Positions 1,157-16,824 of a stretch of 64,000 bases of DNA are shown piece by piece. How positions within the stretch are numbered: position 1 is the first letter of the stretch; every line of letters starts with the position of its first letter. Made by a program: the position numbers and the translations under genes. The stretch lies in contig CALVUJ010000024.1 of the NCBI GenBank assembly GCA_944363575.1, positions 144,107 through 208,106 on the forward strand. The letters run 5' to 3'. The notes under the pieces are model-generated. The model worked only from the letters and a program-made list of their open reading frames with translations. It did no database searches and had not been told where the DNA came from. The DNA comes from an uncultured Bacilli bacterium. Its GTDB lineage: Bacteria > Bacillota_I > Bacilli_A > RFN20 > DUOF01.

Positions 1157-2170
1157 ATGATGCCTAAAAGAAGTGGATTACTTACATCGTTGTTAACTTT
1201 AATTATGCTAGTTACTTCACCAATGACTATATTTGCAAAAAATGTTTATGTTGGTGGGCAAAATATAGGAATTGAACTAAAAAGTAACGGGCTATTAATT
1301 TCAGGCACATATGATGTAAAACAACAAAACAAAACATACAATCCTAAAAGCAATAGTGATTTAAGAAAAGGTGATTTAATTATTAGCGTTGGAGAAGATA
1401 GGGTTAATTCATTAAATGATCTAGTAACTATTTTAAAAGAGAAATACGCTAATGAAGATAGTGCCCCAATAACTATTTTACGTGATGGAATAACATATAA
1501 GAAAAATTTAAAATTAATTAAAGATGAATTTGGTAATATTAAAACGGGGTTATTTATTAAAGAAAGACTATTAGGAATTGGAACAATCACTTATTACGAT
1601 CCAGAAAATAAGAGCTATGGTGCTTTAGGACACGAGATGAATGATGCTAGTTATAGCCCAAGCATTGATTTGTCTTTTGGAACTATTTATGCAAGTGATG
1701 TAACCTTAATTAGAAAAAGTAAAGATGGTGCACCAGGAGAAAAAATAGCATCCATAAATGAAGATGAAATACTAGGTGAAGTAACAAAGAACAATGAATA
1801 TGGCATTTATGGTAAATATACCGTTAATGTTGATGATTATGTTTCTTTAGAAGTAGGCGATAAAGATGATGTTAAACTTGGGAAGGCTCAAATATGGACG
1901 GTTATCCATGGAGATAAAGTAGAAAAATTTGATATAGAAATAGTGAGTGTAAAATCCCAAGAAAAACAAAGTATTAAAGGTATTTCTTTTAAAATAGTAG
2001 ATAAGAGGCTTTTAAATATAACAAATGGCATTGTAGCGGGAATGAGTGGCTCTCCAATTATCCAAGACAATAAAATTATAGGTGCAGTTACCCATGTTCT
2101 AGTTGATAAAGTAGAGTATGGTTATGGTATCTTTATTGAATGGATGCTAGAAGAGTCCAATAACTTATAG
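1157..2170 (+). CDS. spoIVB: SpoIVB peptidase (S55 family, PDZ domain plus serine peptidase)
   Basis: It has an N-terminal signal or anchor and a PDZ-like region (DLRKGDLIISVGEDRVNSL). The serine-peptidase motif GMSGSPI and a GALGHEM His region are present. The recN–spoIVB adjacency matches Bacillus and Clostridium gene order. Confidence 0.8.
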   Translation: MMPKRSGLLTSLLTLIMLVTSPMTIFAKNVYVGGQNIGIELKSNGLLISGTYDVKQQNKTYNPKSNSDLRKGDLIISVGEDRVNSLNDLVTILKEKYANEDSAPITILRDGITYKKNLKLIKDEFGNIKTGLFIKERLLGIGTITYYDPENKSYGALGHEMNDASYSPSIDLSFGTIYASDVTLIRKSKDGAPGEKIASINEDEILGEVTKNNEYGIYGKYTVNVDDYVSLEVGDKDDVKLGKAQIWTVIHGDKVEKFDIEIVSVKSQEKQSIKGISFKIVDKRLLNITNGIVAGMSGSPIIQDNKIIGAVTHVLVDKVEYGYGIFIEWMLEESNNL

Positions 2171-2207
2171 TCTAGATAGCAATATCTAGACTTTTTATAT
2201 AAAAAAA
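2154..2207 (+). repeat. 54-bp direct repeat, copy 1; it overlaps the spoIVB stop codon and contains an intrinsic terminator hairpin
   Basis: The sequence agtccaataacttatagtctagatagcaatatctagactttttatataaaaaaa is identical to 4813..4866. It contains the hairpin tctagata-gca-atatctaga followed by cttttt. Confidence 0.85.
2171..2198 (+). terminator. Rho-independent terminator after spoIVB
   Basis: An 8-bp stem TCTAGATA/TATCTAGA with a short loop is followed by a T-run. Confidence 0.6.
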
Positions 2208-2320
2208 TTTATTTGTTATGACCACAGTTTGCTAGTAAAAAAATTCATTAATTTTCATATACTAAATATTTAATAACAATTAAGATTGTATATACCTATA
2301 ATCATACATAAAGACAAATA

Positions 2321-2349
2321 TTGACAAAATATTAAAAACTTTATATTAT
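2321..2349 (+). promoter_or_regulatory. Sigma-A-like promoter (TTGACA-17-TATTAT) upstream of a leader ORF and the toxin-like gene
   Basis: TTGACA lies at 2321-2326 and TATTAT at 2344-2349, separated by a 17-nt spacer. Confidence 0.4.
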
Positions 2350-2374
2350 TAACCTAAGTTATGGAGGGTTTTAT

Positions 2375-2476
2375 ATGAATAAGAAACTCATTTATAAACT
2401 TAATAACATGTATATAATCGCAAGGGGAATTTTCCCCTTTTTTGTTACAAAAATAATGCAAGGTGTTCCACCCTGA
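2375..2476 (+). CDS. Putative 33-aa leader peptide (MNKKLIYKLNNMYIIARGIFPFFVTKIMQGVPP)
   Basis: A GGAGGG sequence sits 6 nt upstream of the ATG. The ORF is not in the six-frame track because it is too short. It contains an intrinsic terminator hairpin inside its coding sequence. Confidence 0.25.
   Translation: MNKKLIYKLNNMYIIARGIFPFFVTKIMQGVPP
2420..2446 (+). terminator. Intrinsic terminator or attenuator hairpin inside the leader ORF
   Basis: The hairpin aagggga-att-ttcccctt is followed by ttttgtt. Confidence 0.4.
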
Positions 2477-2525
2477 TAGAGTAGATTATAACTTATAAGA
2501 ATACAAAAAGGGAGGGAAAAGAAAA

Positions 2526-3590
2526 ATGAAATTAAAAAGTAAAATTATAAGTTTTGCAGTTTGTTTAAGCTTTTGTTTGGTGGCTTTATTTAATGCTATA
2601 TATTATAGAGATGAAAATATAAAAGTTCATGATACAGTTGTAAATAAAACAGATATAGATTATATGTCTTTATTAGATACATTTGATGAAAAGGAACTAA
2701 TAGTTAAAGAAGATGGGGCTAAATTAGAAGCTGTTCAATATTTAGATACTGATTTCTTTTCTGAACTAGATAATATGAGTTATAATGATGAAGTAGTTAC
2801 TAATAGTTATATTGATTATTCGTTTGATTTTAATAGTACATGTGATTTAATTATAGTAACAATTAGTTTCTATGAAAATGGTGAATTAGTTTCGGTAGAA
2901 ATAATTCAAGGTGTGCCTTTTGTTAATGAAGAAGGAAAAACTGATGCTGTTTTTAATGATGAAGGAGAAATTATTTATTTAAGTGATTTTGCCGATTTAA
3001 ATGAATTTGAAAATTGTGGCTTGTTTTCTAAATTAAAGAAAGTGGTAAAAACAATAGCACAAGTAGCAACAACAGCGACAGCTTATGCATTAGGTGCTGC
3101 GACAGTTTGTGGTGTGGTTGCAGTTACAGCAGCTTCAGCAATAGCAAGTGGTGGAGTAACTTTACCAATAGGCTTACCAGCGGTAGCAGCGACATTAGGT
3201 TGGGCGATGGTAGGCATATCTACAATAACAGGAACAACAGCAATTGGCTCATGGGGAATCACTGTGGGGATAGAAAAAACGGAAGAATCAGCAAATTCTA
3301 AAGAAGAAGATAAAGAAAAAGACTTAGAAGATAACAATAGTTCTAAAGCGGAGACTTCTCAAAACCAAATGCAAAAACAGGTGGAACGTGGACAGGCTCC
3401 TAAAGAAGTTGATAGAGTGGACAAAAAACATAATGAATATGGACAAGATCATGTTCATTTCAAAGATGGAACATCTATCAATAAAGATGGAACAGTTCAT
3501 GATAAAGGACATGGCACACCAAACTTGACAAATGATGTTCTAGATTGGCTAAATAGAAATGGATGGTGTTTAAATGGATTACAAAACTAA
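2526..3590 (+). CDS. Secreted toxin-like protein with a signal peptide, a Gly/Ala-rich glycine-zipper membrane segment, a charged linker and a His-rich C-terminal domain
   Basis: AGGGAGGG lies 9 nt upstream of the ATG. The N-terminal signal peptide is MKLKSKIISFAVCLSFCLVALF. The hydrophobic GxxxG/A stretch is AYALGAATVCGVVAVTAASAIASGGVTLPIGLPAVAATLGWAMVG. The C-terminal tail is HNEYGQDHVHF...HDKGHGTP. The 3' end overlaps the next ORF. Confidence 0.55.
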   Translation: MKLKSKIISFAVCLSFCLVALFNAIYYRDENIKVHDTVVNKTDIDYMSLLDTFDEKELIVKEDGAKLEAVQYLDTDFFSELDNMSYNDEVVTNSYIDYSFDFNSTCDLIIVTISFYENGELVSVEIIQGVPFVNEEGKTDAVFNDEGEIIYLSDFADLNEFENCGLFSKLKKVVKTIAQVATTATAYALGAATVCGVVAVTAASAIASGGVTLPIGLPAVAATLGWAMVGISTITGTTAIGSWGITVGIEKTEESANSKEEDKEKDLEDNNSSKAETSQNQMQKQVERGQAPKEVDRVDKKHNEYGQDHVHFKDGTSINKDGTVHDKGHGTPNLTNDVLDWLNRNGWCLNGLQN

Positions 3591-4008
3591 TAAAACAACT
3601 AATATTAATAAAATGGAATTTTATTCTATATTACATGATTGTGTTGTAGGAAAAATTCATTATACAAATGAAAGTTTGACATTTGATATATGGGATAATT
3701 CTAAAGTGGATGATACTCCTAAATACAATTTGAATATTCCTTTAAATAGTAAATTAGAAGATTGTGTGAATATTTATAATTATAAATTTGTTAATTACGG
3801 GGATATACAAGGAAAGGTCAATGATAGTAATGTTATTCTTAATGATTCTTTTAAGTTTCAAATTATAGATATAGGATATATGTATAACACCGTGTTTTTC
3901 AAAGGAAGCATGATTGATTCTAATGGTAATTTAGATAGAAATTACATTATAATAGAAGTTATAATAGAAGAAAATTTTGATAAATTAATCTTAAAAACGA
4001 ATATCTGA
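3574..4008 (+). CDS. Small cytoplasmic protein, candidate immunity partner
   Basis: Its start overlaps the upstream gene by 17 nt. GGATGGTG lies just upstream. It has no signal peptide. The architecture is typical of a toxin-immunity pair. Confidence 0.45.
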   Translation: MDYKTNKTTNINKMEFYSILHDCVVGKIHYTNESLTFDIWDNSKVDDTPKYNLNIPLNSKLEDCVNIYNYKFVNYGDIQGKVNDSNVILNDSFKFQIIDIGYMYNTVFFKGSMIDSNGNLDRNYIIIEVIIEENFDKLILKTNI

Positions 4009-4050
4009 TATGTTTTTTAGAATGTGTTTTAAGAGCTGTAAAAATAAGGA

Positions 4051-4764
4051 ATGATAAAATTGAAAGAAAAAAGAAATATATTAAGTCTGATAAATATAAT
4101 AATATCTAGTTTAGTATTAATAGGATTAATAATATTAATGGTTATTAATTTAAATAAGAAGGATGCTAATGATATATTTAAAGATACTTATGAAAGTATA
4201 GTAGAAGTTAAAGTAACCGAAGGTGAAGATATAGGTTATGGTAGTGGAGTAATTATTAGTGAAGATGGTAAAATAATTACTAATGCTCATGTTATTATCT
4301 ATGAAGAAGATAACTTATTTGATAAAGTAGAAATAAGATTAAGTTATGAAGATGAATACAGAGAAGTAAGTATTTTAAAATATGATAGCGATAAAGATTT
4401 AGCATTGCTTAAACTAGATAATGTAAAAGTAAAAAGTATTAAAACAAATACTGAATATAGTTATGGAGATAAAGTATATGCGATAGGTAATGGAAGCAAC
4501 TATGGTATTTCTATAACTGATGGAATAATATCTAATCCAAAGTTAACAATAGAATTAAGTGAGAGAAATGTTATAACCATACAATGTGATCTTACTATAA
4601 GTGAAGGTAATAGCGGAGGAGCATTATTAGATAACAAAGGAAGATTAATAGGAATAACTACATTTAGATTAAAAGATAGTAGCAATAAAGTAATACAGGG
4701 AATCAGTTATAGTATTCCTTATTATATAGTTAATGAATTTATTGAATGTGATAATAATTTTTAA
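4051..4764 (+). CDS. Membrane-anchored trypsin-like serine protease (S1 family, no PDZ domain)
   Basis: An N-terminal transmembrane segment is followed by the catalytic His motif TNAHVI, the Asp motif DLALLKL and the Ser motif GNSGGALL. Confidence 0.75.
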   Translation: MIKLKEKRNILSLINIIISSLVLIGLIILMVINLNKKDANDIFKDTYESIVEVKVTEGEDIGYGSGVIISEDGKIITNAHVIIYEEDNLFDKVEIRLSYEDEYREVSILKYDSDKDLALLKLDNVKVKSIKTNTEYSYGDKVYAIGNGSNYGISITDGIISNPKLTIELSERNVITIQCDLTISEGNSGGALLDNKGRLIGITTFRLKDSSNKVIQGISYSIPYYIVNEFIECDNNF

Positions 4765-4812
4765 CAAAAAGTATCTCAACTAGAATACACTAGTATTATA
4801 TAATTAAATATA

Positions 4813-4866
4813 AGTCCAATAACTTATAGTCTAGATAGCAATATCTAGACTTTTTATATAAAAAAA
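4813..4866 (+). repeat. 54-bp direct repeat, copy 2 (identical to 2154..2207), including a terminator hairpin
   Basis: It is a perfect 54/54 match to copy 1 and sits immediately upstream of addB. Confidence 0.85.
4830..4857 (+). terminator. Rho-independent terminator (second copy)
   Basis: The same hairpin tctagata-gca-atatctaga is followed by cttttt. Confidence 0.6.
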
Positions 4867-4900
4867 ATGATTTCTTTGCTATAATAAAAAAGGTGATTAT

Positions 4901-7237
4901 ATGCCATATAAATCTTATTTACAAGATAACACTTGCTTTATAGTTCCTAATTCCTTAAAACAGGAAATACTTTTTTATATATCAAATAATAAATTATTAG
5001 TTAATGTTTCTTTTTATAATATTGAAGAAGTAAAAAGAAATCTTTTTTTTGATTATGATGAAAAGACTATTTATATGTTAGCTACTCATTATCACCTTTC
5101 TTATGATGATGCCAAACTATATATAGAAAACATGTATTACTTAAATGATAAAAAACTAAACCATTTCAAAGTAACTAAATTACAAGAAATGAAAGCATAT
5201 CTAGATCAAAATAATTTATTAAAATATAACCCTACTTTTATAAATAATTTAAATAAGAAAAAAATTATTACAAGTTATTCTAAAACTTCCTTTTTTAATG
5301 AAAAGATTTTTTCTTTATTAAATAATGTAACTTATCTTCATAATGAAATTAGTGAAGAAAAAGAAATTTATGAATTTAATTTTATTGAAGAAGAAGTAGA
5401 GTTTATCGCTAATAAAATAGCTAGTTTAATAGATTCAAAAGTCAATATAAATAACATAAAATTAGTAAATGTAAAAGAAGAAGATCTTTTATTTATAAAA
5501 AAAATCTTTTCCTTTTTTAATATCCCTCTTCAACTAAATAATAGCACTAATAGCTATGAAACAGAGATTATCAAATATTTTATCAATAATTTAAAAGAAA
5601 CAAATGATTTAACTTTATCTTTAAATAATTTTAAAGAAAAATATCCTTTAATAAATACAAGAAACAACGATTTTTATAATCTAATAATTAACGTTATGAA
5701 TAAATTTTACTATATAACTGATTATAAAAAGGATCTTACTTATTTAATTGAAGAATTTAAAAAACAATATATAAGAGAAGAAAAATTAGCAAATTGCATA
5801 GAAATCATCTCTTTAGAAGAAATGAATAATAATGATAATTACTACTTTTTAATGGGTTTTAATAGTTATTTTCCTTTTCTATATAAAGATGAAGACTATT
5901 TAAGTGATAAAATAAAATTAGAATTAGGCTTTAAAACAAGTACTTATATCAATAAAGAAATCAAAAAATATACATTAAATAAAATAAAAGAAACTAAAAA
6001 TATTATTATTAGTTACAAATTAAAAGATTACTTTAACTCCTATCATATTTCTACTTTAATTGATGATTTATCTTACAATTTACATCAAAATTATCAAAAT
6101 AATAATGACTTTAGTTATTCTTCAAAATATGACAAACTAAAATTATCCAAATACTTAGATGAATTTTATAAATATTCGTATAAAAATAGTGAACTAGAAA
6201 AATTATATTCTAGTTATAAAGGGGATTATTATAATAGTTATGATAATCGGTTTAAGGGATTAGAAAAAAATAAATTTATAAATTATTTAAATAATGAATT
6301 AACATTATCTTATACTTCCTTAGATGACTTTTATAATTGCTCTTTTAAATATTATCTTACAAATTTACTAAAAGAGAATACACCAACTTTTGCTTCTAGT
6401 ATTGGCAATCTTTTTCATTATGTTTTATCTAAAATGTATCAAAAAGATTTTGATTTTGAAAAAGTTTATAACGAATATTTAAATACTTTAAACTTACTTG
6501 AAAAAGAAAAAGTTTTATTAATCAAAATTAAAGAAACTTTAAAAAAAGATATTGATATTTTAAATGAACAAATAAATAAAAGTTCTTTTGTTAAATGTAG
6601 ATGCGAAGAAAACATTAAAATTAACATTAAAAGTTCTATTTCGGTTATTTTAAAAGGATATATTGACAAGATTATGTTAACGGATGATTATAAAAAAGCT
6701 TATATTGTTGATTATAAGACAGGAAATCCTAAATTTAGTTTTGACTATTTAGAAAACGGGTTATATATGCAACTTGCTATATACATGTATTTATTAAATA
6801 AAAGTAAAGAATACGCTGATGTTTTTTTAGTGGGTTGCTACTTACAAAAAATACTCGATGATGATTTAAATAAAGAAGAATTAAAGTTAGAAGGGTATAC
6901 TTTTAATGATTTAAATATCGTACAAGAAATTGATCACAATTATCAATCTGGCAGTTTTATTAAAGGTATAAAAGCAACTAAAGATGGTGGATTAGGAATG
7001 TATGCAAAAACCTTTAATAGTGACACTTATAAACAAATTATTGAAACAATTGGTCGTAAGGTTAAAGAAGCTATTAATGATATTATTGATAATAAGTTTA
7101 CTATTAACCCTAAAATTGTTAATGGGAACAATATTTCTTGTAAATATTGTGAATTTAAAGATATTTGTTATCGTAAATATCAGGATTATATTAGAATTGT
7201 AAAGGAAGGTGATGAAGATGAGCAAGAATTGGACTAA
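4901..7237 (+). CDS. addB: ATP-dependent helicase/nuclease subunit B (AddB/RexB), compact form
   Basis: The RecB-like nuclease motif YIVDYKTGNP is present. The C-terminal CKYCEFKDIC plus an upstream Cys match the AddB Fe-S Cys pattern. It overlaps addA by 29 nt. At 778 aa it is much shorter than Bacillus AddB. Confidence 0.8.
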   Translation: MPYKSYLQDNTCFIVPNSLKQEILFYISNNKLLVNVSFYNIEEVKRNLFFDYDEKTIYMLATHYHLSYDDAKLYIENMYYLNDKKLNHFKVTKLQEMKAYLDQNNLLKYNPTFINNLNKKKIITSYSKTSFFNEKIFSLLNNVTYLHNEISEEKEIYEFNFIEEEVEFIANKIASLIDSKVNINNIKLVNVKEEDLLFIKKIFSFFNIPLQLNNSTNSYETEIIKYFINNLKETNDLTLSLNNFKEKYPLINTRNNDFYNLIINVMNKFYYITDYKKDLTYLIEEFKKQYIREEKLANCIEIISLEEMNNNDNYYFLMGFNSYFPFLYKDEDYLSDKIKLELGFKTSTYINKEIKKYTLNKIKETKNIIISYKLKDYFNSYHISTLIDDLSYNLHQNYQNNNDFSYSSKYDKLKLSKYLDEFYKYSYKNSELEKLYSSYKGDYYNSYDNRFKGLEKNKFINYLNNELTLSYTSLDDFYNCSFKYYLTNLLKENTPTFASSIGNLFHYVLSKMYQKDFDFEKVYNEYLNTLNLLEKEKVLLIKIKETLKKDIDILNEQINKSSFVKCRCEENIKINIKSSISVILKGYIDKIMLTDDYKKAYIVDYKTGNPKFSFDYLENGLYMQLAIYMYLLNKSKEYADVFLVGCYLQKILDDDLNKEELKLEGYTFNDLNIVQEIDHNYQSGSFIKGIKATKDGGLGMYAKTFNSDTYKQIIETIGRKVKEAINDIIDNKFTINPKIVNGNNISCKYCEFKDICYRKYQDYIRIVKEGDEDEQELD

Positions 7238-10200
7238 TGAACAATTAGAGGCCATTAATTCACCTACTGGAAATATACTTGTAAGTGCAGGAGCAGGAAG
7301 TGGCAAAACAGCTGTTTTAACTGAAAGAGTTATTACCTTACTAAATACGAATATAAAAATAAATGAATTGCTAATCTTAACGTTTACTAAAGCAGCAGCA
7401 ATGGAAATGAAAGAAAGAATTAAAAAAGCTATTAAAAAGAATTCAAAATTAAAAGAACAGTTAGATTTATTAGACAATGCTTACATTACTACTTTTGATA
7501 GTTTTGCTTTATCTATCGTTAAAAAATATCATTATTTATTAGGTGTTTCTAGTAATGTTAAAATTGTTAATGAAGCAGCACTAAAACTAGAAAAATATAA
7601 AATTATTGATGAAATAATGGAAGAAAAATATCATAGTAAAGATATCCATTTTACTTCTTTAATCTATCGTTTCTGTTTAAAAGATGACCAAGATTTAAAA
7701 AATTTATTTTATGAACTGAATGAAAAATTTTCTTTAATAATTGATAAAGAAACTTTTTTAGAAGAATTTTCTAATTCTTTAAATGAACAAAGAATTAAAT
7801 CTTTATGGGATTTTTACTTTAATAAAATTTTAGAAGAAATGACCGTTTTACAAAACTTATATTATGAAATAGAAAATAGTTTAGAAAGTGTTGAAGATGA
7901 AAACCTTTTTGAAAAACTTTCTCTAATCATGGAACCATTTATCAATAGTAATGATTATGATGTTATTGCTAGTAACATTAATTTTAATTTATCAAGTCTT
8001 AGAAACACTAAAAATATTAATGACACTTTTTTAAATAATAAAAAGGAAATGAGTAAAGTAAGAGATAAAATTAAAAAGATGATTAGTTATCCTCATAAAA
8101 AAGAAATTCTTGAAGCTTTAAAAGAAAATCAAAAATATGAAATAGAAATTATTTCAATTATTAAAGAAATTAATAAAAGAATTAATAAATTAAAGTTTGA
8201 TAATCAAATGTTTGAATTTATGGACATTGCTAAATTAGCTATTAAAGTATTAAAAGAAAATAAAGATATACGTGAGGAATTTAAAGATAGTTTAAAAGAA
8301 ATTATGTTAGATGAATATCAAGATACTAGTGATATTCAAGAAGCTCTTATTTCTTTAATATCTAATAATAATGTATATATGGTTGGAGATATCAAACAAT
8401 CTATTTATCGTTTTAGAAATGCTAATCCACGTATTTTTCTAGATAAATATAATGCCTACTTGAATAATCAAAATGGTAAAGTTATTAATTTAATGCGTAA
8501 TTTTAGATCTAGAGAAGAAGTATTAAATGATATTAATCTTTTATTTAATGAAATAATGGTCTCTAAACTTGGAGGGATAGAGTACTCAAATGGGCATAAG
8601 TTTATATATGGAAACATTGAATATGATAAAAATAAATTTTCTAATCAATCAAATAATCTAGAAATATATAACTATGATCGTAAAAAACTTAGTTCGCTTT
8701 CCTTTGATGAAATAGAAGCCTTTATTATCGCTTATGATATAAAAAATAAAATAGAAAGTAACTATATGATATATGATAAAGATAACAATATATCTAAAAA
8801 ACTTGAATATAAGGATATTACCATCCTTATCGATCGTAAAACAGGATTTGAAACTTATCAAAAAGTTTTTGAATACCTTAAAATACCTTTAAGCATTTAT
8901 AAAAACAACGATTTAACATTTAGCAATGAAATACTTTGTTTTAAAAACATTTTCAAACTACTTTTAAAATATAAAGAAAATAATTTTGATAGTGAATTCA
9001 AACACTCATTTATGTCTGTTGGAAGAAGTTTCCTATTTGAAATTAACGATAACGACTTATTTGATATAATTAGTAAAGAGAACTATTTTACTAACCAAAT
9101 ATATTTATCCTTAAAAGAAATTATCGATAATATAGATTATTTAAGTCTTAAAGAAATAATGAACAAAATTATGGAAAAACTAGATGTTTTTTATAAAATA
9201 GCAAAATGTAATAACATTGAAGACACTAGTGCGATTATCCATTATCTCAATGAATTAGTAGGGGATTTAAGTACCTTAAATTATGATTTAAAGAAACTAG
9301 TAGAATATTTTGAAGTCGTAATTTCTAAAGAATTTAAAATTGAATTACCTGTTCGTAAAAACAGTATGAATTCTGTTAAAATTATGACAATTCATATCTC
9401 AAAAGGATTAGAATTTAATATATGTTATTTTGCAGGATTTAATAAACGATTTAGCGAATTTGATAGTAAGAAAAAGTTTTTATATGATGATGAACTAGGT
9501 TTTTTATTACCTTTATTTATTAATGATGAAAAATATAAAAATATTGGAAATTATTATTATTTTGATAAATATTATGAAGAAGAGATAAGTGAAAAAATTA
9601 GATTATTATATGTTGCTTTATCTAGAGCCAAAGAGAAGATGATTATCGTAGGAGATTTTAGTGATACCAAAAATAAAAAAATTAACTTAAATGAAACACG
9701 AAGTTTTTATGATTTGATTAAATATGGAGAGTCTGTTTTAAACAAATATTACCGTTTTATTGATTTAACAACATATAATATTGACCCTAATTATAAATAC
9801 TATCGTCCAGTAAATAATTTATTTAAAAGTACTGCTAAAAAAATTATAAATAAAGAAATAAAGATAAATAATCACGTATTAGAGCGAACTAGTTTTTCTA
9901 AAAAGCAATTAAATCTTTTAGATGAAGATACTTGTAAATTATTAGAAAAAGGTAATGAGTTGCATCATATTTTAGAAAATATTGATTTAAAAAATCCTGA
10001 TTTAAGTATATATAAATTAAAGGAAAATGATTTAGAATTAGTTAAAGGATTCTTAAATAGCCCTTTAATAAAAAACATTAAAAGCGGAAAAATATATCAA
10101 GAATATGAGTTTATGTATCAAGAAAACGATGAAATAAAACATGGCTTTATTGATTTAATGATTGTTTATGATAATTATATTGATATTATTGATTATAAAT

Positions 10201-10337
10201 TATCTAATATCAATGATGAAAATTATGTTAAGCAATTAAAAGGATATAAAAATTATATTACTTATTTAACCAATAAACCGGTTCATTTATATTTATATTC
10301 ATTATTTAAAAAAGAATATTTAAAGATAGGAGAATAG
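7209..10337 (+). CDS. addA: ATP-dependent helicase/nuclease subunit A (AddA, UvrD family)
   Basis: The Walker A motif is GAGSGKT. UvrD/PcrA helicase motifs are present. The C-terminal nuclease motif is IDIIDYK. Confidence 0.85.
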   Translation: MMKMSKNWTNEQLEAINSPTGNILVSAGAGSGKTAVLTERVITLLNTNIKINELLILTFTKAAAMEMKERIKKAIKKNSKLKEQLDLLDNAYITTFDSFALSIVKKYHYLLGVSSNVKIVNEAALKLEKYKIIDEIMEEKYHSKDIHFTSLIYRFCLKDDQDLKNLFYELNEKFSLIIDKETFLEEFSNSLNEQRIKSLWDFYFNKILEEMTVLQNLYYEIENSLESVEDENLFEKLSLIMEPFINSNDYDVIASNINFNLSSLRNTKNINDTFLNNKKEMSKVRDKIKKMISYPHKKEILEALKENQKYEIEIISIIKEINKRINKLKFDNQMFEFMDIAKLAIKVLKENKDIREEFKDSLKEIMLDEYQDTSDIQEALISLISNNNVYMVGDIKQSIYRFRNANPRIFLDKYNAYLNNQNGKVINLMRNFRSREEVLNDINLLFNEIMVSKLGGIEYSNGHKFIYGNIEYDKNKFSNQSNNLEIYNYDRKKLSSLSFDEIEAFIIAYDIKNKIESNYMIYDKDNNISKKLEYKDITILIDRKTGFETYQKVFEYLKIPLSIYKNNDLTFSNEILCFKNIFKLLLKYKENNFDSEFKHSFMSVGRSFLFEINDNDLFDIISKENYFTNQIYLSLKEIIDNIDYLSLKEIMNKIMEKLDVFYKIAKCNNIEDTSAIIHYLNELVGDLSTLNYDLKKLVEYFEVVISKEFKIELPVRKNSMNSVKIMTIHISKGLEFNICYFAGFNKRFSEFDSKKKFLYDDELGFLLPLFINDEKYKNIGNYYYFDKYYEEEISEKIRLLYVALSRAKEKMIIVGDFSDTKNKKINLNETRSFYDLIKYGESVLNKYYRFIDLTTYNIDPNYKYYRPVNNLFKSTAKKIINKEIKINNHVLERTSFSKKQLNLLDEDTCKLLEKGNELHHILENIDLKNPDLSIYKLKENDLELVKGFLNSPLIKNIKSGKIYQEYEFMYQENDEIKHGFIDLMIVYDNYIDIIDYKLSNINDENYVKQLKGYKNYITYLTNKPVHLYLYSLFKKEYLKIGE

Positions 10338-10339
10338 TA

Positions 10340-10918
10340 ATGAAAATTGGTCTTTTTATAGGAAGTTTTAATCCCGTTCATAATGATCACCATAAAATAG
10401 TAGAAATAGCCAAAAGTTATGTAGATAAAATTATTGTTATACCCACGAATGAAAAATATCATTTAAAAAGTAATTTAATTTCTTTTAAACATCGTTATGA
10501 AATGCTTAAATTAGTTTTTAAAGAAGAAGATATTATCGTTAGTGATCTTGAAAAAGAAAAGTATCATTATACTTATCAAAATATTAAAAAAATTAGAAAG
10601 GAATATAAAAATGATGATTTGTTTTTAATAATGGGAGCGGATAACTTATTAGAATTAAAAACATGGAAAAACTATCGTTATCTTTTAAATAATTGTTTTT
10701 TTATTATTTTTAAAAGGAACAATATTGATATAGAGACACTTATAAATAATTGTTTTACAAAGCATCTAAATAAGTTTATAATAGTAAGTAGCAAGCTAAA
10801 TGATATTAGTTCAACTTTGATTAGAAATAAATTAGAAAATAATGAGGATGTTAAAGTTTATTTAAATGAATCAATTTTAAACTATATCAAGAAAAACAAT
10901 TTGTATAAAGGAGAATAA
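10340..10918 (+). CDS. NadD-like nucleotidyltransferase paralog (nicotinate or nicotinamide mononucleotide adenylyltransferase family)
   Basis: The N-terminus is IGLFIGSFNPVHNDHH, which is HxDH rather than the canonical HxGH. A second canonical nadD sits at 14102. Confidence 0.6.
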   Translation: MKIGLFIGSFNPVHNDHHKIVEIAKSYVDKIIVIPTNEKYHLKSNLISFKHRYEMLKLVFKEEDIIVSDLEKEKYHYTYQNIKKIRKEYKNDDLFLIMGADNLLELKTWKNYRYLLNNCFFIIFKRNNIDIETLINNCFTKHLNKFIIVSSKLNDISSTLIRNKLENNEDVKVYLNESILNYIKKNNLYKGE

Positions 10919-10921
10919 AAG

Positions 10922-11404
10922 ATGAACGTAAAATATGATAAATTAAAAGAAGTTTTAGAAAAAATGATAAGCATGAATCATATGATTGCTACAATGGAAT
11001 CTTGTACTGGTGGAGGTGTGAGTAGCGTTATCACTAATGTGCCTGGTGCTAGCGAAGTTTTTCATTTTGGGGTAGTAACATACTCTAATGATTATAAGGT
11101 TAAAATGGGTGTCGATCATCGTATTTTAGAAAAATTCGGGGTATATAGTATTGAAACATCTAAAGCCATGGCTAAAGCTATTTGTTTATTAACAAATGCT
11201 GAAATAGGTATTGGTGTAAGTGGTAATTTAAACATGGTAGACCCTATAGAAAATAAAGGTGGCATCGTTTATTTTTCAATTTATCAATTAAAAGAAAAGA
11301 AATTTTATAGTAAAGTCGTAACAATTACTAAACCCCAACGAGAATATTCTAAAAAAGCTATTATTAACGTTATTATTGACACTTTATACGATATTTATTT
11401 TTAG
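10922..11404 (+). CDS. pncC: CinA C-terminal domain / NMN amidohydrolase PncC
   Basis: The motif MESCTGGGVSSVITNVPGAS and the overall length fit a CinA-C domain. Confidence 0.75.
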   Translation: MNVKYDKLKEVLEKMISMNHMIATMESCTGGGVSSVITNVPGASEVFHFGVVTYSNDYKVKMGVDHRILEKFGVYSIETSKAMAKAICLLTNAEIGIGVSGNLNMVDPIENKGGIVYFSIYQLKEKKFYSKVVTITKPQREYSKKAIINVIIDTLYDIYF

Positions 11405-12093
11405 TTTTCTTCCGTCTTTTTTATTTGATTTAAGAGCTTTATAAGAGCTCTTTTTTCAATTCTTGAAACATACGAACGTGAAATATTAAATTTTTTTGCT
11501 ATTTCTTTTTGCGTTAATTCTTTACCATTAATTCCATATCTCAAATCAATTATTTCTTTTTCTTTATCATCCAAAACATTCAAATTTTCACTTAATATTT
11601 TTAATCTATCATCATGCAAAAGTTTATCTTTTATTGCCTCATCATTAGAAGAAATAACATCAATTAACGTTATTTCGCCACCATCTTTATCTTTTCCAAT
11701 TGAATCAGAAAGGGAAGCTACTTGAAAATTTCTTTTATTAGCTCTTAAATGCATTAACATCTCATTTTCTATACATTTTGCAGCATACGTAGCAATTTTA
11801 ACACCCTTATCAAAAGAAAAAGAATCTACTGCTTTAATTAAACCTATCGTTCCAATAGAAAACAAATCATCTTGTGTTTCACCACTATTTTCATATTTCT
11901 TAGCAATATGCACCACTAAACGAAGATTATGCTCAATTAACTTTCTTCTAGCATTCTCACTATGATTTTTAAATAATTCATTAACATAATAATCTTCCTC
12001 TTCCTTACTAAGAGGTAAAGGATAAGCACCATTCTTCAAATAACCAACAAACAAAAAAATCTCTTTAAAAGTATCAAAAACAAAATTAAACAT
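11401..12093 (-). CDS. sigK: RNA polymerase sporulation sigma factor SigK (pro-sigma-K), uninterrupted
   Basis: FVGYLKNGAYPLPLS resembles the B. subtilis pro-sigK cleavage region. IEHNLRLVVHIAKKYENSG and RSYVSRIEKRAL are also present. It matches SigK better than SigE. Confidence 0.8.
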   Translation of the reverse strand: MFNFVFDTFKEIFLFVGYLKNGAYPLPLSKEEEDYYVNELFKNHSENARRKLIEHNLRLVVHIAKKYENSGETQDDLFSIGTIGLIKAVDSFSFDKGVKIATYAAKCIENEMLMHLRANKRNFQVASLSDSIGKDKDGGEITLIDVISSNDEAIKDKLLHDDRLKILSENLNVLDDKEKEIIDLRYGINGKELTQKEIAKKFNISRSYVSRIEKRALIKLLNQIKKTEEN

Positions 12094-12177
12094 ATAAACC
12101 TCCTATATATTTAATTAAATGCACTTAAAATCTTTAAAATTACTATTATTTGAAGTAAAATATTACTGGGTGATTTT

Positions 12178-12699
12178 ATGTCTAATTTAATACCAACATG
12201 GTATTCAAGAAGTATTTATGATATTGATATTGATAAATTAAAAGAAAATAATATTAAATATATTTTATCTGATTTAGACAATACTTTAGTGGGGTATGAT
12301 ATTCCTACACCAAACGAATCAGTAATCAATTTAGTTACTAAATTAAAAGAAAATAACATCAATTTATTAGTAATTTCTAATAATAGTTATAAAAGATTAA
12401 AAACTTTTTCTAATCCATGTTCATTAAATTTCTTATCAAGAGCTAGAAAACCTGGAAGTAAAAAACTTGCTAACTATTTAAAAGAAAATAATATTGATGT
12501 TAAAGACTGCGTTTTTGTAGGAGATCAACTATTAACTGACATGTGGTGTGCTAATAAATTAAAATGCAAATCGATACTAGTAGACCCACTTCAAAAAAAA
12601 GAATCAATTTTTACTTTTTTTAACCGCCTTATTGATAAAAAAATTCGTAAGAGATATCATAAACAGGGAAGATTAGTTAGCATTATGAAAGGAGAATAA
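12178..12699 (+). CDS. yqeG: YqeG-family HAD phosphatase
   Basis: The HAD motifs DLDNTL, VISNNS and VGDQLLTD are present. It is the first gene of the conserved yqeG–yqeH–yhbY–nadD–yqeK–rsfS operon. Confidence 0.75.
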   Translation: MSNLIPTWYSRSIYDIDIDKLKENNIKYILSDLDNTLVGYDIPTPNESVINLVTKLKENNINLLVISNNSYKRLKTFSNPCSLNFLSRARKPGSKKLANYLKENNIDVKDCVFVGDQLLTDMWCANKLKCKSILVDPLQKKESIFTFFNRLIDKKIRKRYHKQGRLVSIMKGE

Positions 12700-12702
12700 G
12701 TT

Positions 12703-13818
12703 ATGGAAGAAAAATTATATTGTTATGGATGTGGTCATATCTTGCAATCTAATGATGAAACTAAGGCTGGTTATGTGCCTGAAAAAATCTTAGAAACGAA
12801 AGAAAACATACTGTGCCAAAGATGTTTTAAATTGCAACATTATAATACTAATAGTGAAATTCAATTAGTAGAAGAAGATTACATAACTATTCTTAAAAGT
12901 ATTGCTAAAGAAAAAGCATTACTTGTATATGTTATCGATGTTTTTAACTTTGAAGCAAGTATTATTAAAGATTTTACTAAATATGTAAATAATCAAAAAA
13001 TTCTTGTTCTTGTTAATAAAAGAGATTTAATTCCTTCATCAGTAAAAGATGAAAAATTATTAGAATGGATAAAAGAAAAATTATATGTAAATGGGATTAA
13101 AAATATTCATGATATTATTATGAGTAGTGGACAAACTAATTATAATATTGATTTAATTTTAAATAAAATAGATGAATTAAGAGAAGGAAGAGATGTTTAT
13201 GTAATTGGTAATGCCAATGTAGGAAAATCAACTTTTATTAATTCACTATTAAAAAATTATAGTAATGAAACCGATAAATTTATTACTACTAGTTCCTTTC
13301 CAGGAACAACATTAAATGTTATAAGGATACCATTAGATATGAATTCTTATATTTACGATACTCCTGGAATTATTGAAAAGAACTCTATGTTATATGCTGT
13401 AGATCCACATGTTTTAAAATATATTTTACCTAGAAAAGAAATCAAGCCTTTAACTTTCCAATTAAAGCAAGAACAATCATTATTAATTGGAGGTTTAGCG
13501 GCATTTGATTTTGTTAAAGGTCGCGAAATAGGTTTCACTTGCTATTTTTCTAGTTTTGTTAAAATACATCGTTGTAAAAAAGAAAAAAGAGAAGATATTT
13601 TTAATAGTTTAGTAGCATCAAAAAGCATTTTGCCTACTTCTTCTAGAATCAGCAAATTTAGTGATTTAAAGTTAAAGAAAATAGAATTAAATTCTCCTGG
13701 TAAAGTTGATATCGTTATTTCAGGATATGGTTGGATAAGTTTTGAATATACTAATCAAGAAATAGAAGTTTATGTGCCTGGTAATTGTAAAGTATATTTA
13801 AGGGAGGCTCTTATTTAA
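12703..13818 (+). CDS. yqeH: Ribosome biogenesis GTPase YqeH
   Basis: An N-terminal zinc ribbon (CYGCGH...CQRC) is followed by a circularly permuted GTPase with VIGNANVGKSTFINSL. Confidence 0.85.
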   Translation: MEEKLYCYGCGHILQSNDETKAGYVPEKILETKENILCQRCFKLQHYNTNSEIQLVEEDYITILKSIAKEKALLVYVIDVFNFEASIIKDFTKYVNNQKILVLVNKRDLIPSSVKDEKLLEWIKEKLYVNGIKNIHDIIMSSGQTNYNIDLILNKIDELREGRDVYVIGNANVGKSTFINSLLKNYSNETDKFITTSSFPGTTLNVIRIPLDMNSYIYDTPGIIEKNSMLYAVDPHVLKYILPRKEIKPLTFQLKQEQSLLIGGLAAFDFVKGREIGFTCYFSSFVKIHRCKKEKREDIFNSLVASKSILPTSSRISKFSDLKLKKIELNSPGKVDIVISGYGWISFEYTNQEIEVYVPGNCKVYLREALI

Positions 13819-14105
13819 TGCTAACAACTAAGCAAAAAGTTAAATTACGTTCACTAGCAATGAATTTAAGACCCATTTTTCAAGTTGGTAAAGATAGCCT
13901 TAGTGCTAATTTAATCGAGGGCTTAAATAATGCTTTAGAAGCACATGAATTAATAAAAGTTACTGTTTTAAAAAATTGTTCTGATTCAATTAAAGAATTA
14001 GCTTTAGATATTTCTAGTAAAACTCATAGTGAAATTATCCAAATTATTGGAAGGAATATTGTTTTTTATCGTAAATCTAAAAAACAATTAATAGATTTAT
14101 CATGA
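13818..14105 (+). CDS. yhbY: YhbY/CRS1-family RNA-binding protein (YqeI)
   Basis: The LTTKQKVKLRSLAMNLRPIFQVGK motif is present. Confidence 0.75.
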   Translation: MLTTKQKVKLRSLAMNLRPIFQVGKDSLSANLIEGLNNALEAHELIKVTVLKNCSDSIKELALDISSKTHSEIIQIIGRNIVFYRKSKKQLIDLS

Positions 14106-15184
14106 AAAAAATTATTCTTTTTTATGGAAGTTTTGATCCCATACATAATGGACACTTAAAAATTGCTAAAGAAGCTTTAAAATTAATAAAGGGTGATGAA
14201 TTATACTTTGGGTTAAATAAAAACTCACATTTAAAGAATTTGACCCCTTTTACGAAAAGAAAAAAAATGATTGAATTAGCAATTGAACACAATACCAAGT
14301 TTTTTATATCTAATATCCTATTTGATTATAATGATATTGAAAAAACTTATACTGAAATATTAAATAATTGTAATGATGATAATGAATATTATATACTAGT
14401 TGGACAAGATCAATTAGCACTCTTACATAACTGGCATAACTTTTCTTTACTAAAAGAAAAGTTCAAATTTATTATAGCAAATAGAGGAAACATTACTTTT
14501 GATATTAATCCTAATTATATCTACCTTAATAACAAAGTATATAATATCTCTAGCAAAGAAATAAGAGAAGGGAATTATAAAGATATTCCTTTAAAAGTTA
14601 AAGAGTACATCATCAACAATAATATATATTTAGAAAAACAAATAAAAAAATATATGTCACCTAGAAGATTAAAACATACTTTATCCGTAAAAAAATTAGC
14701 ACTAAAAATATATAAATATAATAAAAATGACTTAAATACAAATAAAATAATAACAGCATGTCTACTACATGATATAGCAAAAGAATATCCTTTAAACAAA
14801 ACAAAAATAATCATGAAAAAGTATTATAGTGATAAAATCAAAGAAAATGCTTCTGTATATCATCAATACATAGGAGAATACATAGCTATCAAAAAATTTC
14901 ACATACAAGATAAAGAAATACTTGAAGCAATTAAATATCACACAACAGGCCATAAAAACATGTCAAAATTAGCAAAACTAGTATATGTTTCAGATAAGCT
15001 CGATCCACTAAAAAAATATGATTCATCTTTATTAATAAATGAATGTTTAAACAATCTAGAACAAGGATTTATTAGTGTGCTTAAAAAAAACATTGGATTT
15101 TTACATATTAATGGTTTAAAATATAATCATGGTGATACGAATAGTACTATCGACTATTATTTGAAGGGAGACATATTATCATGA
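14102..15184 (+). CDS. nadD: Fusion of nicotinate-nucleotide adenylyltransferase NadD (N-terminal) and the YqeK HD-domain phosphohydrolase (C-terminal)
   Basis: The N-terminus has the canonical HxGH motif YGSFDPIHNGH. The C-terminal HD domain has HTLSV...LLHDIAKE. The two activities sit in a single 360-aa ORF. Confidence 0.8.
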   Translation: MKKIILFYGSFDPIHNGHLKIAKEALKLIKGDELYFGLNKNSHLKNLTPFTKRKKMIELAIEHNTKFFISNILFDYNDIEKTYTEILNNCNDDNEYYILVGQDQLALLHNWHNFSLLKEKFKFIIANRGNITFDINPNYIYLNNKVYNISSKEIREGNYKDIPLKVKEYIINNNIYLEKQIKKYMSPRRLKHTLSVKKLALKIYKYNKNDLNTNKIITACLLHDIAKEYPLNKTKIIMKKYYSDKIKENASVYHQYIGEYIAIKKFHIQDKEILEAIKYHTTGHKNMSKLAKLVYVSDKLDPLKKYDSSLLINECLNNLEQGFISVLKKNIGFLHINGLKYNHGDTNSTIDYYLKGDILS

Positions 15185-15537
15185 TAGAATTAATTGTAAA
15201 AACATTATTAGACAAAAAAGGGGAGGATATTACTATTATAGATGTTTCAAAAAGAAATCCTTTATGTGACAACTTTATTATTTGTTCAGCAAATAATGTA
15301 CGTCAATTAGAAACTTTAGCTAAACAATTGGATGATAAATTAGCAGAAAATAACCTTCCTACTAAAAAAATTCAAGGAAAAGGTTCAAATTGGTTAATTG
15401 TAGATGCAGGTGATGCTATTGTACATATCTTTACAAAAGAAGAAAGAGAAAAATTTAACTTAGAAAAATTATGGGGTGATTTTCCTATTAAACATATCAA
15501 TACTAATGTAGAGAAAGTTGCTACTAAAAAAAGATAA
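15181..15537 (+). CDS. rsfS: Ribosomal silencing factor RsfS (Iojap/YqeL)
   Basis: The motifs GEDITIIDVS and LIVDAGDAIVHIF are present. Confidence 0.85.
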   Translation: MIELIVKTLLDKKGEDITIIDVSKRNPLCDNFIICSANNVRQLETLAKQLDDKLAENNLPTKKIQGKGSNWLIVDAGDAIVHIFTKEEREKFNLEKLWGDFPIKHINTNVEKVATKKR

Positions 15538-15636
15538 TTTTAAAAAAAAGGTATTATAATCTAATAACCTTTTTTTATTTATAGATTATATTTACATTTT
15601 TTCTTTTTTAAAATATACTTAAAGAAAATAAGGAAA

Positions 15637-16233
15637 GTGATAAAAATGATTCAAGAAAGTAAAATATTATCTCTAGCTAAAAAGAATAGGGGAGTAGTAA
15701 CTACTAAAGAAGTAAGTAACCATAACATAGCAAGAACATATTTAACTAAACTTGTTAATGAACATAAATTATATAGAGTAGAAAGAGGAATTTATTCTAC
15801 CTTTAACAAAAAAATAGACTTGTTTTATAAAATTCAAAATAGTAGCAAAAAAATTGTTTTTTCACATTTCACTTCCTTAGATATACAAGGATTTTATAAA
15901 AACATTGATATAACAGAACAATTGAGCATCCCACAAGGATATAACGCAAAAAATTACTCTAATTATAAATTATTTTATAATCACTTAAATAATTATCAAA
16001 AGGGGATGATAAAATACAAATATAATGATTATACTATCAATGTATATGATATCGAACGTTCAATTTGTGACATAATAAAAGATCGCCATCGTTTTGATGA
16101 AAGTAAATATAATAAATTTATAAACTTTTATTTTAATAAAACAGATATTAATTATAGTAAATTACTTGAATATTCAAAGATGTTACACATAAGCCCTTTA
16201 GTGCATCACTATTTATCATTATTTAAAGCTTAG
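15637..16233 (+). CDS. AbiEi-like winged-helix protein (type IV toxin-antitoxin antitoxin-like)
   Basis: The N-terminal pattern NRGVVTTKEVSNHNIARTYLTKLVNEHKLYRVERGIYS matches the AbiEi wHTH signature. The middle segment VFSHFTSLDIQGF is also AbiEi-like. The ATG at 15646 is an alternative start. Confidence 0.4.
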   Translation: MIKMIQESKILSLAKKNRGVVTTKEVSNHNIARTYLTKLVNEHKLYRVERGIYSTFNKKIDLFYKIQNSSKKIVFSHFTSLDIQGFYKNIDITEQLSIPQGYNAKNYSNYKLFYNHLNNYQKGMIKYKYNDYTINVYDIERSICDIIKDRHRFDESKYNKFINFYFNKTDINYSKLLEYSKMLHISPLVHHYLSLFKA

Positions 16234-16269
16234 TAACTAAAAAAATATTTATACATATTAATAATTAGG

Positions 16270-16749
16270 GTGATATGTATGAATAATTTTGATGAAGGAC
16301 TAAAAGAAACTAGAAACTATTTATATCAACAGGTAGATACTCTTGCACTTTTAAATAAATTATCTACTTCAATTAATTGTGAAATTTTAAATTTAGAAAA
16401 TTATCGAATTAATGTAATAGATGAAAACAGTTATATAATAAAATTTAATTTAACAAGCTTAATAAATAAACTAAAAGAATTTTTAAATGAAATTCATATT
16501 TTAATAAAAGGAAAAAAAGGATTTCCTATCTTTGGGTTAGGGGATATAGAAGCCATCTCGATAATAAAAGTAGCACCATCCACAGACTACAAACAATACG
16601 TAATATCAAATAACTTAAATAAAGAATTCAAAAACTTAAAAAACATTACATCAGAAATATTAAAAAATGCTCAAAAAGAAAATGATTATGACACTTTAAC
16701 CTTAATAGGTAACTTCTCGCTATTTTTAAATAAGAATATAAACTCCTAA
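16270..16749 (+). CDS. Hypothetical protein, putative partner of the AbiEi-like gene; it has no nucleotidyltransferase motifs
   Basis: A 159-aa ORF lies 36 nt downstream of the AbiEi-like gene. No recognisable motif was found. Confidence 0.4.
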   Translation: MICMNNFDEGLKETRNYLYQQVDTLALLNKLSTSINCEILNLENYRINVIDENSYIIKFNLTSLINKLKEFLNEIHILIKGKKGFPIFGLGDIEAISIIKVAPSTDYKQYVISNNLNKEFKNLKNITSEILKNAQKENDYDTLTLIGNFSLFLNKNINS

Positions 16750-16792
16750 ATCATAACTTCGCATAATATATATTATGTAATTTTTAAAGCAA

Positions 16793-16824
16793 TAAAAAAA
16801 GTATTCCTAATCGAATACTCTTTT
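16793..16824. terminator. Bidirectional intrinsic terminator between the hypothetical gene and metG
   Basis: The sequence aaaaaaa-AGTATTC-ctaatc-GAATACT-cttttattt has an A-run and a T-run flanking a 7-bp stem. Confidence 0.5.

Follow-up and report, generated by a model that had tools for sequence, protein, structure and literature searches.

We analysed a 64,000-nt stretch of contig CALVUJ010000024.1 from an uncultured Bacilli bacterium (assembly GCA_944363575.1), referred to below as the window, in which the genes spoIVB and addB are separated by a toxin cassette. We propose, at a probability of roughly 0.55, that positions 2208-4866 of the window are a non-autonomous mobile toxin cassette whose insertion between the spoIVB terminator and the addB promoter duplicated a 54-bp target. 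Comparison with related loci (given L numbers) establishes that the cassette, which is flanked by target sequence and has no recombinase, has been relocated repeatedly as a unit, with repeats of 51-54 bp, and that at least one member of the group is circular or tandem. Its cargo consists of a candidate leader peptide attenuator, a polymorphic toxin gene, a putative cognate immunity gene and a gene for a membrane-anchored S1C protease.

Duplication of the spoIVB 3' end around an insertion

The cassette is bracketed by a perfect 54-bp direct repeat, present on the same strand with 0 mismatches at 2154-2207 and 4813-4866, such that the cassette and one repeat copy together occupy 2,659 bp. We found exactly these two copies in the whole 64-kb window and no third at up to 3 mismatches; the 54-mer is the sole long perfect direct repeat of the window, and 0 such matches are expected by chance (100 shuffles). 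Identity ends on the left at G (2153) versus A (4812) and on the right at T (2208) versus A (4867), with 7 of the next 10 nt matching. Copy 1 consists of the last 14 nt of spoIVB, the TAG stop codon (2168-2170) and the native intrinsic terminator of the gene, and the 54-mer thus holds 17 nt of the spoIVB 3' end, stop included. Folded as RNA, the repeat forms a 24-nt hairpin with 15 nt on either side (-12.6 kcal/mol, z = -4.2), the hairpin core TAGATAGnAATATCTA lying at 2173-2188 and 4832-4847. Copy 2 includes the spoIVB coding sequence out of context. It ends 34 nt before the addB ATG (4901), and between the two lies TGCTATAAT (4877-4885), by inspection an intact addB promoter region. The features of the locus, in which ORF stands for open reading frame, are as follows.

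1157..2170, + strand: spoIVB, the upstream host gene with the duplicated 3' end (Peptidase_S55 and PDZ, Pfam 4e-70)
2154..2207, + strand: repeat copy 1, an exact 54-mer that runs on from the spoIVB ORF and forms the left cassette boundary
2169..2192, + strand: terminator hairpin of copy 1, a 10-bp stem with GCAA loop followed by a T-run (terminator scan)
2208..2320, + strand: left spacer, non-coding; starting at the repeat boundary, ~40 nt can be aligned to the left end of the L094 cassette
2321..2349, + strand: promoter-like site, TTGACA, 17 nt, TATTAT; 11 of 12 consensus positions
2375..2476, + strand: leader ORF, 33 aa, ending GVPP then stop, with a terminator hairpin inside (2422-2439)
2526..3590, + strand: polymorphic toxin, 354 aa
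3574..4008, + strand: predicted immunity protein, 144 aa, overlapping the toxin stop by 17 nt
4051..4764, + strand: S1C protease, 237 aa, trypsin-like, HtrA-type without PDZ (Trypsin_2, Pfam, 3e-24)
4765..4812, + strand: right spacer, non-coding, not conserved
4813..4866, + strand: repeat copy 2, an exact 54-mer duplicating the spoIVB 3' end and terminator, hairpin at 4828-4851
4901..7237, + strand: addB, downstream host gene (Pfam and NCBIfam)
7209..10337, + strand: addA, downstream host gene (Pfam and NCBIfam)

We compared the locus with L001-L004, which come from metagenome-assembled genomes (MAGs) of uncultured gut Bacilli and are the closest relatives, with SpoIVB proteins 83-85% identical to that of the window. 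In L003 and L004 (SpoIVB 84-85% amino acid identity), addB and addA come immediately after spoIVB, the gap between spoIVB and addB being 103 and 59 nt, respectively; the products of the genes right after spoIVB match AddB at 56-58% and AddA at 62-65% identity (tblastn). The corresponding gap in the window is 2,730 nt, of which 71 nt remain once the repeat spacing of 2,659 is taken away. Relative to related genomes, the 2.6-kb segment bounded by the repeats is therefore an insertion. L001 and L002 have other genes downstream of spoIVB, and their native spoIVB 3' ends and terminators align over the full length of the repeat, with the conserved pattern AGTCmAATAAC...TATAGyCTAG...TCTAGrCTTTTT...TA.AAA. 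Since the repeat is homologous over its full length to native spoIVB ends, copy 1 is the native sequence and copy 2 a chromosomal duplicate, and the repeat as such derives from the host chromosome. The spoIVB 3' end of the window (2160-2170) lacks 12 nt that L001 (11005-11025) and L002 carry just before the terminator; SpoIVB accordingly has ESNNL at its C-terminus and falls two residues short of the proteins of the relatives, and this difference lies inside the duplicated 54-mer.

A first-pass annotation, made from the window alone, had described the region as an accessory island of three non-housekeeping genes without a recombinase, bounded by two exact 54-nt repeats with a terminator hairpin in each, and had suggested that an insertion had duplicated its target. 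The repeats, their hairpins and the gene content all hold, to which we add the leader ORF at 2375-2476 that it had missed. Duplication of the target agrees with the empty sites in L003 and L004 and with the native spoIVB ends in L001 and L002. Neither Pfam nor NCBIfam identifies a recombinase or transposase among the cassette ORFs, and there is none in the next 8 kb (10340-18422). The annotation had also anticipated island-free strains in which spoIVB is joined directly to addB: that gene order is found in the two related species, and no island-free genome of the same species was found. A skew in GC content or codon usage, which it had proposed to look for, did not emerge. The GC content of the island is 26.7% versus 28.0% for the window, GC at third codon positions is 10-17%, like that of the flanking genes, and the tetranucleotide distance of the island falls at the 65th percentile; its composition is host-like, with no foreign signature.

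Related cassettes at other chromosomal sites

Homologous cassettes occupy different chromosomal sites in related genomes. Their proteases are 78-90% identical to that of the window, and in each case the protease gene lies beside toxin and immunity genes. The sites are listed here, WGS standing for whole-genome shotgun and LRR for leucine-rich repeat.

L083: between lysR and rplU; Hadza source, apparently the same contig as L001 (both 1,029,990 bp)
L094: after a NERD-domain gene; WGS prefix JBGVED01 in common with L004, hence apparently the same MAG
L096: upstream of the rlmN, prpC, prkC cluster
L100: beside LRR genes; toxin C-terminal domain and immunity gene of the type found in the window
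L101: flanked by a 125-aa gene on one side and yfhO on the other

In L004, apparently the MAG that also holds the L094 cassette, the spoIVB-addB site is empty. Among the loci compared, we found no orthologous empty sites for the insertions in L083, L094, L096 and L101.

Both flanks are available for four cassettes (window, L094, L101 and L083), and direct repeats bracket three of the four.

Window: 54 bp, perfect; spacing 2,659
L094: 53 bp at 100% (75 bp at 87%), at 5889-5963 and 8833-8907; spacing 2,944
L101: 51 bp with 1 mismatch; spacing 2,792

The three repeat sequences are mutually unrelated and site-specific, which is at odds with the alternative offered by the first-pass annotation, namely that a cassette had been swapped at a conserved terminator. 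Each repeat forms a strong hairpin followed by T residues and oriented in the same direction as the cassette (z = -4.2 to -5.5). The L101 repeat, much as in the window, sets in 9 nt ahead of the upstream stop codon and spans the terminator of the upstream gene, and its right copy starts at the final base of the protease stop codon. An integrated right junction of the same arrangement (cassette, repeat, yfhO) is seen independently in L103. For L094, a contig from an independent sample (L095, Logan) starts exactly at the last 30 nt of the repeat; if the assembly used k = 31, this start would be a break point at a genuine repeat.

Both copies of the L094 repeat have a diverged, tRNA-3'-like CCACCA fragment 7 nt upstream, and the repeat itself resembles, at 83%, a hairpin directly after tRNA-Leu(CAA) in L002 (12137-12293). 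No tRNA gene flanks the L094 cassette. We had considered the left end of an IS3 element as the source of the L094 repeat and rejected it, the same sequence being the terminator-like hairpin after the L002 tRNA-Leu gene.

One homologous cassette is also found in a form consistent with excision. L102 (ENA ERZ28019339, k141_1582400) comes from another sample, and its name suggests assembly with MEGAHIT at k = 141. The contig is 2,933 nt long with identical 141-nt ends, so that it closes into a path of 2,792 bp. Its two arms match L101 6478-8734 and 5892-6618 at 99.87% identity, and the arms overlap by exactly the 51-nt repeat; hence, the closed path corresponds to an L101-type cassette plus one repeat copy. 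Because a cycle at k = 141 cannot be closed through a repeat of 51 nt, molecules must exist in which the right end of the cassette, the repeat and the left end are joined. These could be excised circles or tandem copies. The excision product for which the first-pass annotation had proposed a search is represented, to this extent, in a homologous cassette only.

Origin of the repeats

We propose that the repeats arise at insertion, as a long target-site duplication of ~52 bp, or about five helical turns, and that the duplicating activity would be encoded elsewhere in the genome and would prefer terminator regions. This proposal is suggested by three properties of the repeats: each copies its local target, closely related cassettes have different ones, and their lengths lie within a 4-bp range. 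Marginal further support comes from the left ends of the window and L094 cassettes, which seem to begin at one and the same cassette position. The duplication would keep the spoIVB stop and terminator in place, and the cassette, in whose right spacer (4765-4812) the terminator scan finds no terminator, would borrow the second copy as its own and so insulate addBA. Recombination between the copies, by RecA or by the same activity, would then excise the cassette as a circle or amplify it in tandem, and excision would restore an intact site of spoIVB, terminator and addB. Whatever the origin of the repeats, the cassette would be excised precisely if the two 54-mers recombined.

Duplications of 51-54 bp far exceed the norm of 2-15 bp for DNA transposons, insertion sequences (ISs) and miniature inverted-repeat transposable elements. 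Longer ones are known: ISs of the IS1634/IS1549 group make target duplications of tens to hundreds of bp, variable in length in the IS1634 type, and Cas1-Cas2 duplicates a whole, often palindromic, CRISPR repeat of ~30-50 bp, while casposons duplicate 14-15 bp. The cassette resembles these long-duplication ISs and Cas1-type integrases in that its insertion duplicates a long target. Unlike them, with their own enzymes and their defined ends or inverted repeats, it shows no enzyme, no inverted repeats and no CRISPR context. In its position beside terminator stem-loops, where damage to host genes is minimised, the cassette is similar to group IIC introns, which are retroelements with a ribozyme and a reverse transcriptase that insert at intrinsic terminators, without target duplication and without cargo. 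Two further candidates were rejected. An integron cassette does not fit, as inspection reveals no R''/L''/L'/R' boxes and no GTTRRRY/RYYYAAC pair, the flanking repeats are identical and there is no integrase; nor does a Xer/dif-type site, for which no core motifs are apparent by inspection and the hairpin spacer is just 4 nt.

Several observations weigh against a target duplication. We know of no enzyme that makes 51-54-bp duplications of such a kind, and literature searches for terminator-duplicating or long-target-duplication cassettes returned no match. There are only three repeat-flanked cases, and the L083 cassette has no sensible flanking repeat of at least 12 nt. The CCACCA pattern at L094 resembles attachment (att) sites and may be a relic of a tRNA-type attachment site. 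By inspection, the cassette ends carry no terminal inverted repeats; the right ends are unrelated and not conserved, and the likeness of the left ends of the window and L094 cassettes, which begins at the boundary (TTATTT...), is marginal (local p about 0.06). A classical transposon is therefore not indicated. No genome of the same species, with or without the island, turned up in the collections searched, where an exact look-up of the window SpoIVB also found no record, and the empty sites come only from related species with SpoIVB ~84% identical. The circle comes from the assembly of one homologue, neither from reads nor from the window, and a tandem duplication is equally possible.

In an alternative that we consider rather unlikely, the cassette is a cis-mobilisable element and the 54-mers are the attL and attR sites of a tyrosine or serine recombinase encoded elsewhere. 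The attP site of the circular cassette would then be identical to the spoIVB 3' end, as in phages and integrative and conjugative elements (ICEs). Attachment sites classically lie in the 3' ends of genes or tRNAs, and the repeat, a gene 3' end with dyad symmetry, has this layout. Several other features fit as well: a homologue has a circular form with one repeat copy, the L094 repeats adjoin tRNA-3'-like fragments and resemble the region past the L002 tRNA-Leu(CAA) gene, similarity at L094 continues imperfectly past the perfect core, as it does in natural pairs of attP and attB, and for a cassette without a recombinase the activity is necessarily encoded elsewhere. Known precedents are the cis-mobilisable elements (CIMEs) of S. 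thermophilus and the pseudo-SCC or SCC-like elements without ccr at the rlmH 3' end (SCC, staphylococcal cassette chromosome), which are non-autonomous and flanked by att sites. Like these, the cassette is small, carries only cargo and no recombinase, has direct repeats that include a gene 3' end and has a relative whose putative circle holds one repeat. However, CIMEs and pseudo-SCC elements have an att sequence in common with a helper ICE or SCC, whereas the three cassettes here, though closely related (proteases 78-90% identical), each have a different, unrelated repeat drawn from the local target, with no helper seen; three different helper integrases would be needed. There is no integrase within 8 kb, the narrow range of 51-54 bp is untypical of identity blocks at attachment sites, and the 29-nt core of the repeat has no exact match in metagenome contigs or in viral contigs. 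Moreover, in 80 other species the spoIVB 3' end is never found duplicated within 10 kb, which rules out spoIVB as a recurrent attachment site.

A second alternative requires no integrating enzyme. A one-off template switch at a stalling hairpin, by microhomology-mediated break-induced replication (MMBIR), fork stalling and template switching (FoSTeS) or homology-facilitated illegitimate recombination, could have re-copied the terminator, with RecA then generating circles or tandem copies. A strong hairpin, a known site of replication stalling, is present in every repeat. The host-like composition, together with a divergence of the proteases similar to that of core proteins, fits copying within the lineage; the spacers at the cassette ends are variable in length and unconserved, resembling filler DNA; neither a transposase nor inverted repeats were found; and the L083 cassette has no repeat at all. 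We nevertheless judge this explanation unlikely. It gives no reason why three independent events should produce repeats of 54, 53 and 51 bp, the three insertions are all oriented alike with respect to the terminator, the left ends of the window and L094 cassettes seem to begin at the same cassette position, and an intact three-gene unit has moved at least five times.

It is highly improbable that the arrangement is an assembly error in which the chromosome is empty and the 2.66-kb unit, a separate circle or part of another strain, was joined to it through the 54-mer. For k-mers of up to 54, a 54-bp repeat collapses into one ambiguous node, and a homologous cassette does assemble as a free circle. 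The integrated form, however, is found in other assemblies, at L094 with 53 bp and at L101 with 51 bp, as well as at the L103 junction, and the repeat lengths vary between assemblies, with no fixed k-1. A mis-joined cassette would still have to carry the spoIVB 54-mer, so that the biological conclusion would hardly be altered.

Finally, the reading in which nothing here is mobile, the 54-mer being a generic terminator or a repeat akin to repetitive extragenic palindromes and the genes ordinary lineage-specific ones, is effectively refuted: the core TAGATAGnAATATCTA does recur at two other terminators, but these occurrences share just 15-16 nt (a TAG stop and a GNRA-loop hairpin), the 54-mer has only two copies in 64 kb, both with 17 nt of spoIVB coding sequence, and two related genomes lack these genes between spoIVB and addB. 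That the repeat might be a generic terminator with many copies was a caveat of the first-pass annotation, and the copy number in the window and the unmatched 29-nt core both speak against it. The other occurrences of TAGATAGnAATATCTA are at the protease terminator of the L096-L099 cassette (L096 2495-2510) and, in L083, at a LysM-gene terminator (13837-13852), and may reflect either convergence on a TAG stop followed by a GNRA-loop hairpin or common ancestry.

Beyond the proposal of target duplication itself, the cassette could represent an undescribed class of non-autonomous element, mobilised by an enzyme encoded elsewhere that makes staggered cuts about five helical turns apart at terminators, and carrying as cargo a new, S1-protease-activated branch of the diffusible polymorphic toxins known from Gram-positive bacteria. 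We regard this as possible, though doubtful, and our suggestion that the insertion mechanism is new is similarly tentative.

Toxin cargo and its leader

Homology among the cassettes spans from about the -35 box to the last protease codons; blastn finds no homologue of the left spacer in the other loci. All aligned cassettes (window, L083, L091, L094 and L101) have an identical TTGAC core in the -35 box. A leader is conserved in these five cassettes, at the following positions.

Window: 2321-2525
L083: 7822-8003
L091: 160-341
L094: 6062-6244
L101: 6046-6223

Each leader contains an ORF of 33-36 aa ending in (G/S)VPP-stop, and the hairpin within the ORF has a compensatory pair. At the end of the window ORF, an anti-Shine-Dalgarno box (2462-2474) could pair with the ribosome-binding site of the toxin gene (2510-2516); this second helix, in which the box UUCCxCCCU pairs with AGGGGAGGAA, is conserved across the five cassettes. 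The leader has no match in Rfam. From its sequence, it looks like a translation-dependent (that is, ribosome-dependent) attenuator, and we regard it as a candidate for one. We also considered whether the leader RNA might act as a guide or bridge RNA; this was rejected, as leaders match their own reconstructed empty sites no better than those of other cassettes.

From its N-terminus onwards, the toxin comprises a signal or anchor, a beta-rich N-domain closed by the conserved motif NCG(L/F/W)FS (~163-168), a Gly/Ala-rich hydrophobic region at ~175-250 and a C-terminal toxin domain at ~275-354. Its N-domain, the first ~175 residues, is common to a set of proteins (P0001-P0011) with at least four C-terminal types; in P0005, for example, it is joined to a WHH and Colicin-DNase C-terminus. 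Conversely, the last ~80 residues of the toxin recur at 50-70% identity on RHS, PT-HINT and YD-shell proteins, and a search of plasmids and phages gave a single distant match to this domain on a hemagglutinin-repeat protein, with no match to the toxin in phages. The closest match to the toxin in the collections is 62% identical. No Pfam or NCBIfam family covers the toxin or the immunity ORF, and a profile of the N-domain found no confirmed relative in metagenome or viral contigs. In an AlphaFold2 (AF2) model of the toxin, the mean predicted local distance difference test score (pLDDT) is 50 and only the C-terminal domain is confident; beta strands at 55-151, a loop and a helix at 165-188 are modelled at a pLDDT of about 50. 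Foldseek found no match to this model in PDB at E <= 0.001, and a sequence search of PDB with the toxin gave spurious low-complexity matches only, which we discarded.

Homologues of the 144-aa immunity ORF follow every toxin with the same C-terminal domain, at 78% identity in L100 and 26-30% in L081, L082 and L088, and toxins with other C-termini are followed by other immunity genes, such as SUKH genes beside WHH toxins. Because it co-varies with the C-terminal domain of the toxin, the 144-aa ORF behaves as the cognate immunity gene, its predicted function. The protease has an N-terminal membrane anchor, and its His, Asp and Ser motifs are visible by inspection; matches to the NCBIfam models for Do, DegS and HtrA are below cut-off. 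It is the constant partner of the toxin, present at every locus examined, and has no match in viral contigs.

Protease-activated diffusible polymorphic toxins of Gram-positive bacteria were first characterised in 2025 (PMC12582261; 10.1101/2025.07.24.666436). One is the ABP system, consisting of the toxin AbpT, the S8 protease AbpP and the immunity protein AbpI, in which AbpT has an N-domain, "BetaH", made of a seven-stranded sheet, a loop and a central helix, and is cleaved at about residue 160, between the beta-sheet and the helix (PMC12582261). Another is the S8-Ntox35 polymorphic toxin system of S. aureus (10.1101/2025.07.24.666436), of the S8-protease type (S8-PTS). The cassette is like both in being a three-gene Gram-positive module with an exported toxin that has a constant N-domain and variable C-termini (of nuclease type in those systems), a strictly co-occurring serine protease and an immunity gene. 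The conserved NCGxFS motif (~163-168) lies, as does the AbpT cleavage site, between a predicted beta-rich domain and a helix, albeit in a low-confidence model. In contrast to both systems, the protease of the cassette is a membrane-anchored, trypsin-like S1C enzyme, not an S8 subtilisin. The N-domain, unlike that of ABP, has no detectable match to a described domain and precedes a long hydrophobic segment rich in Gly and Ala; a claim of homology would ask too much of the weak structural model. By comparison with ABP and S8-PTS, the protease would cleave the exported toxin near NCG(L/F/W)FS, freeing the C-terminal toxin, and the immunity protein would protect the producer.

Polymorphic toxin loci that contain orphan or tandem cassettes exchange C-termini and immunity genes while the N-terminus stays constant (Zhang et al. 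2012, PMC3482391). The present cassette is similar in that its C-terminal domain is also found on RHS, PT-HINT and CdiA-like proteins and in that L082 has a second toxin in tandem. It is different in that polymorphic toxin loci recombine within the toxin gene, whereas here the whole operon appears to move, duplicating the target terminator. In L082, positions 7287-11270 contain, in order, a protease, toxin 1, immunity 1, a protease-gene fragment (9555-9769), toxin 2 and immunity 2, and 326 nt at the fragment repeat, without a difference, the 3' end of protease gene 1 and the beginning of toxin gene 1. The tandem has the appearance of a classic orphan-cassette array formed by homologous recombination. 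L081 has a 76-nt repeat before each of three protease/toxin modules (467-542, 5666-5741 and 7018-7093), which contains two CTTATGAC half-sites 21 nt apart and resembles a LytTR/AgrA binding site. The upstream DNA contains an AgrB gene as well as 48-aa ORFs; an IS3-type transposase is encoded between modules. In this species, quorum sensing may regulate the toxins.

Three further features of the window lie away from the cassette. Adjacent paralogous genes at 29694-34129 (- strand), encoding proteins of 703 and 768 aa, have blocks of 75-82% nucleotide identity and represent a tandem duplication. At 15637-16749, among core genes, a 159-aa ORF that belongs to no family comes after the gene for an AbiEi-type antitoxin-like regulator (198 aa), and the pair may be an AbiE-like toxin-antitoxin system. 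A T-box leader (Rfam RF00230, 93.3 bits) at 62147-62350 (- strand) lies upstream of the gene at 60352-62094.

Interbacterial toxin loci have usually been thought to swap toxin tips or to ride on phages, ICEs or plasmids. Here, a complete, apparently self-regulated operon of toxin, immunity and protease genes appears to move by itself between sites in a clade of uncultured spore-forming gut Bacilli. By analogy, the element would join two known kinds, non-autonomous excisable islets and protease-activated polymorphic toxins, and its cargo would extend the antibacterial toxins described in 2025 (ABP and S8-PTS) to another protease family. Landing at terminators with duplications of ~52 bp would preserve the transcription units on either side. 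If an enzyme sets the length of the duplication, this would be an undescribed insertion mechanism, possibly useful for scarless, reversible insertion of cargo between genes. If instead ordinary recombination or replication is responsible, it would provide a simple route by which addictive toxin cassettes may spread and be lost precisely.

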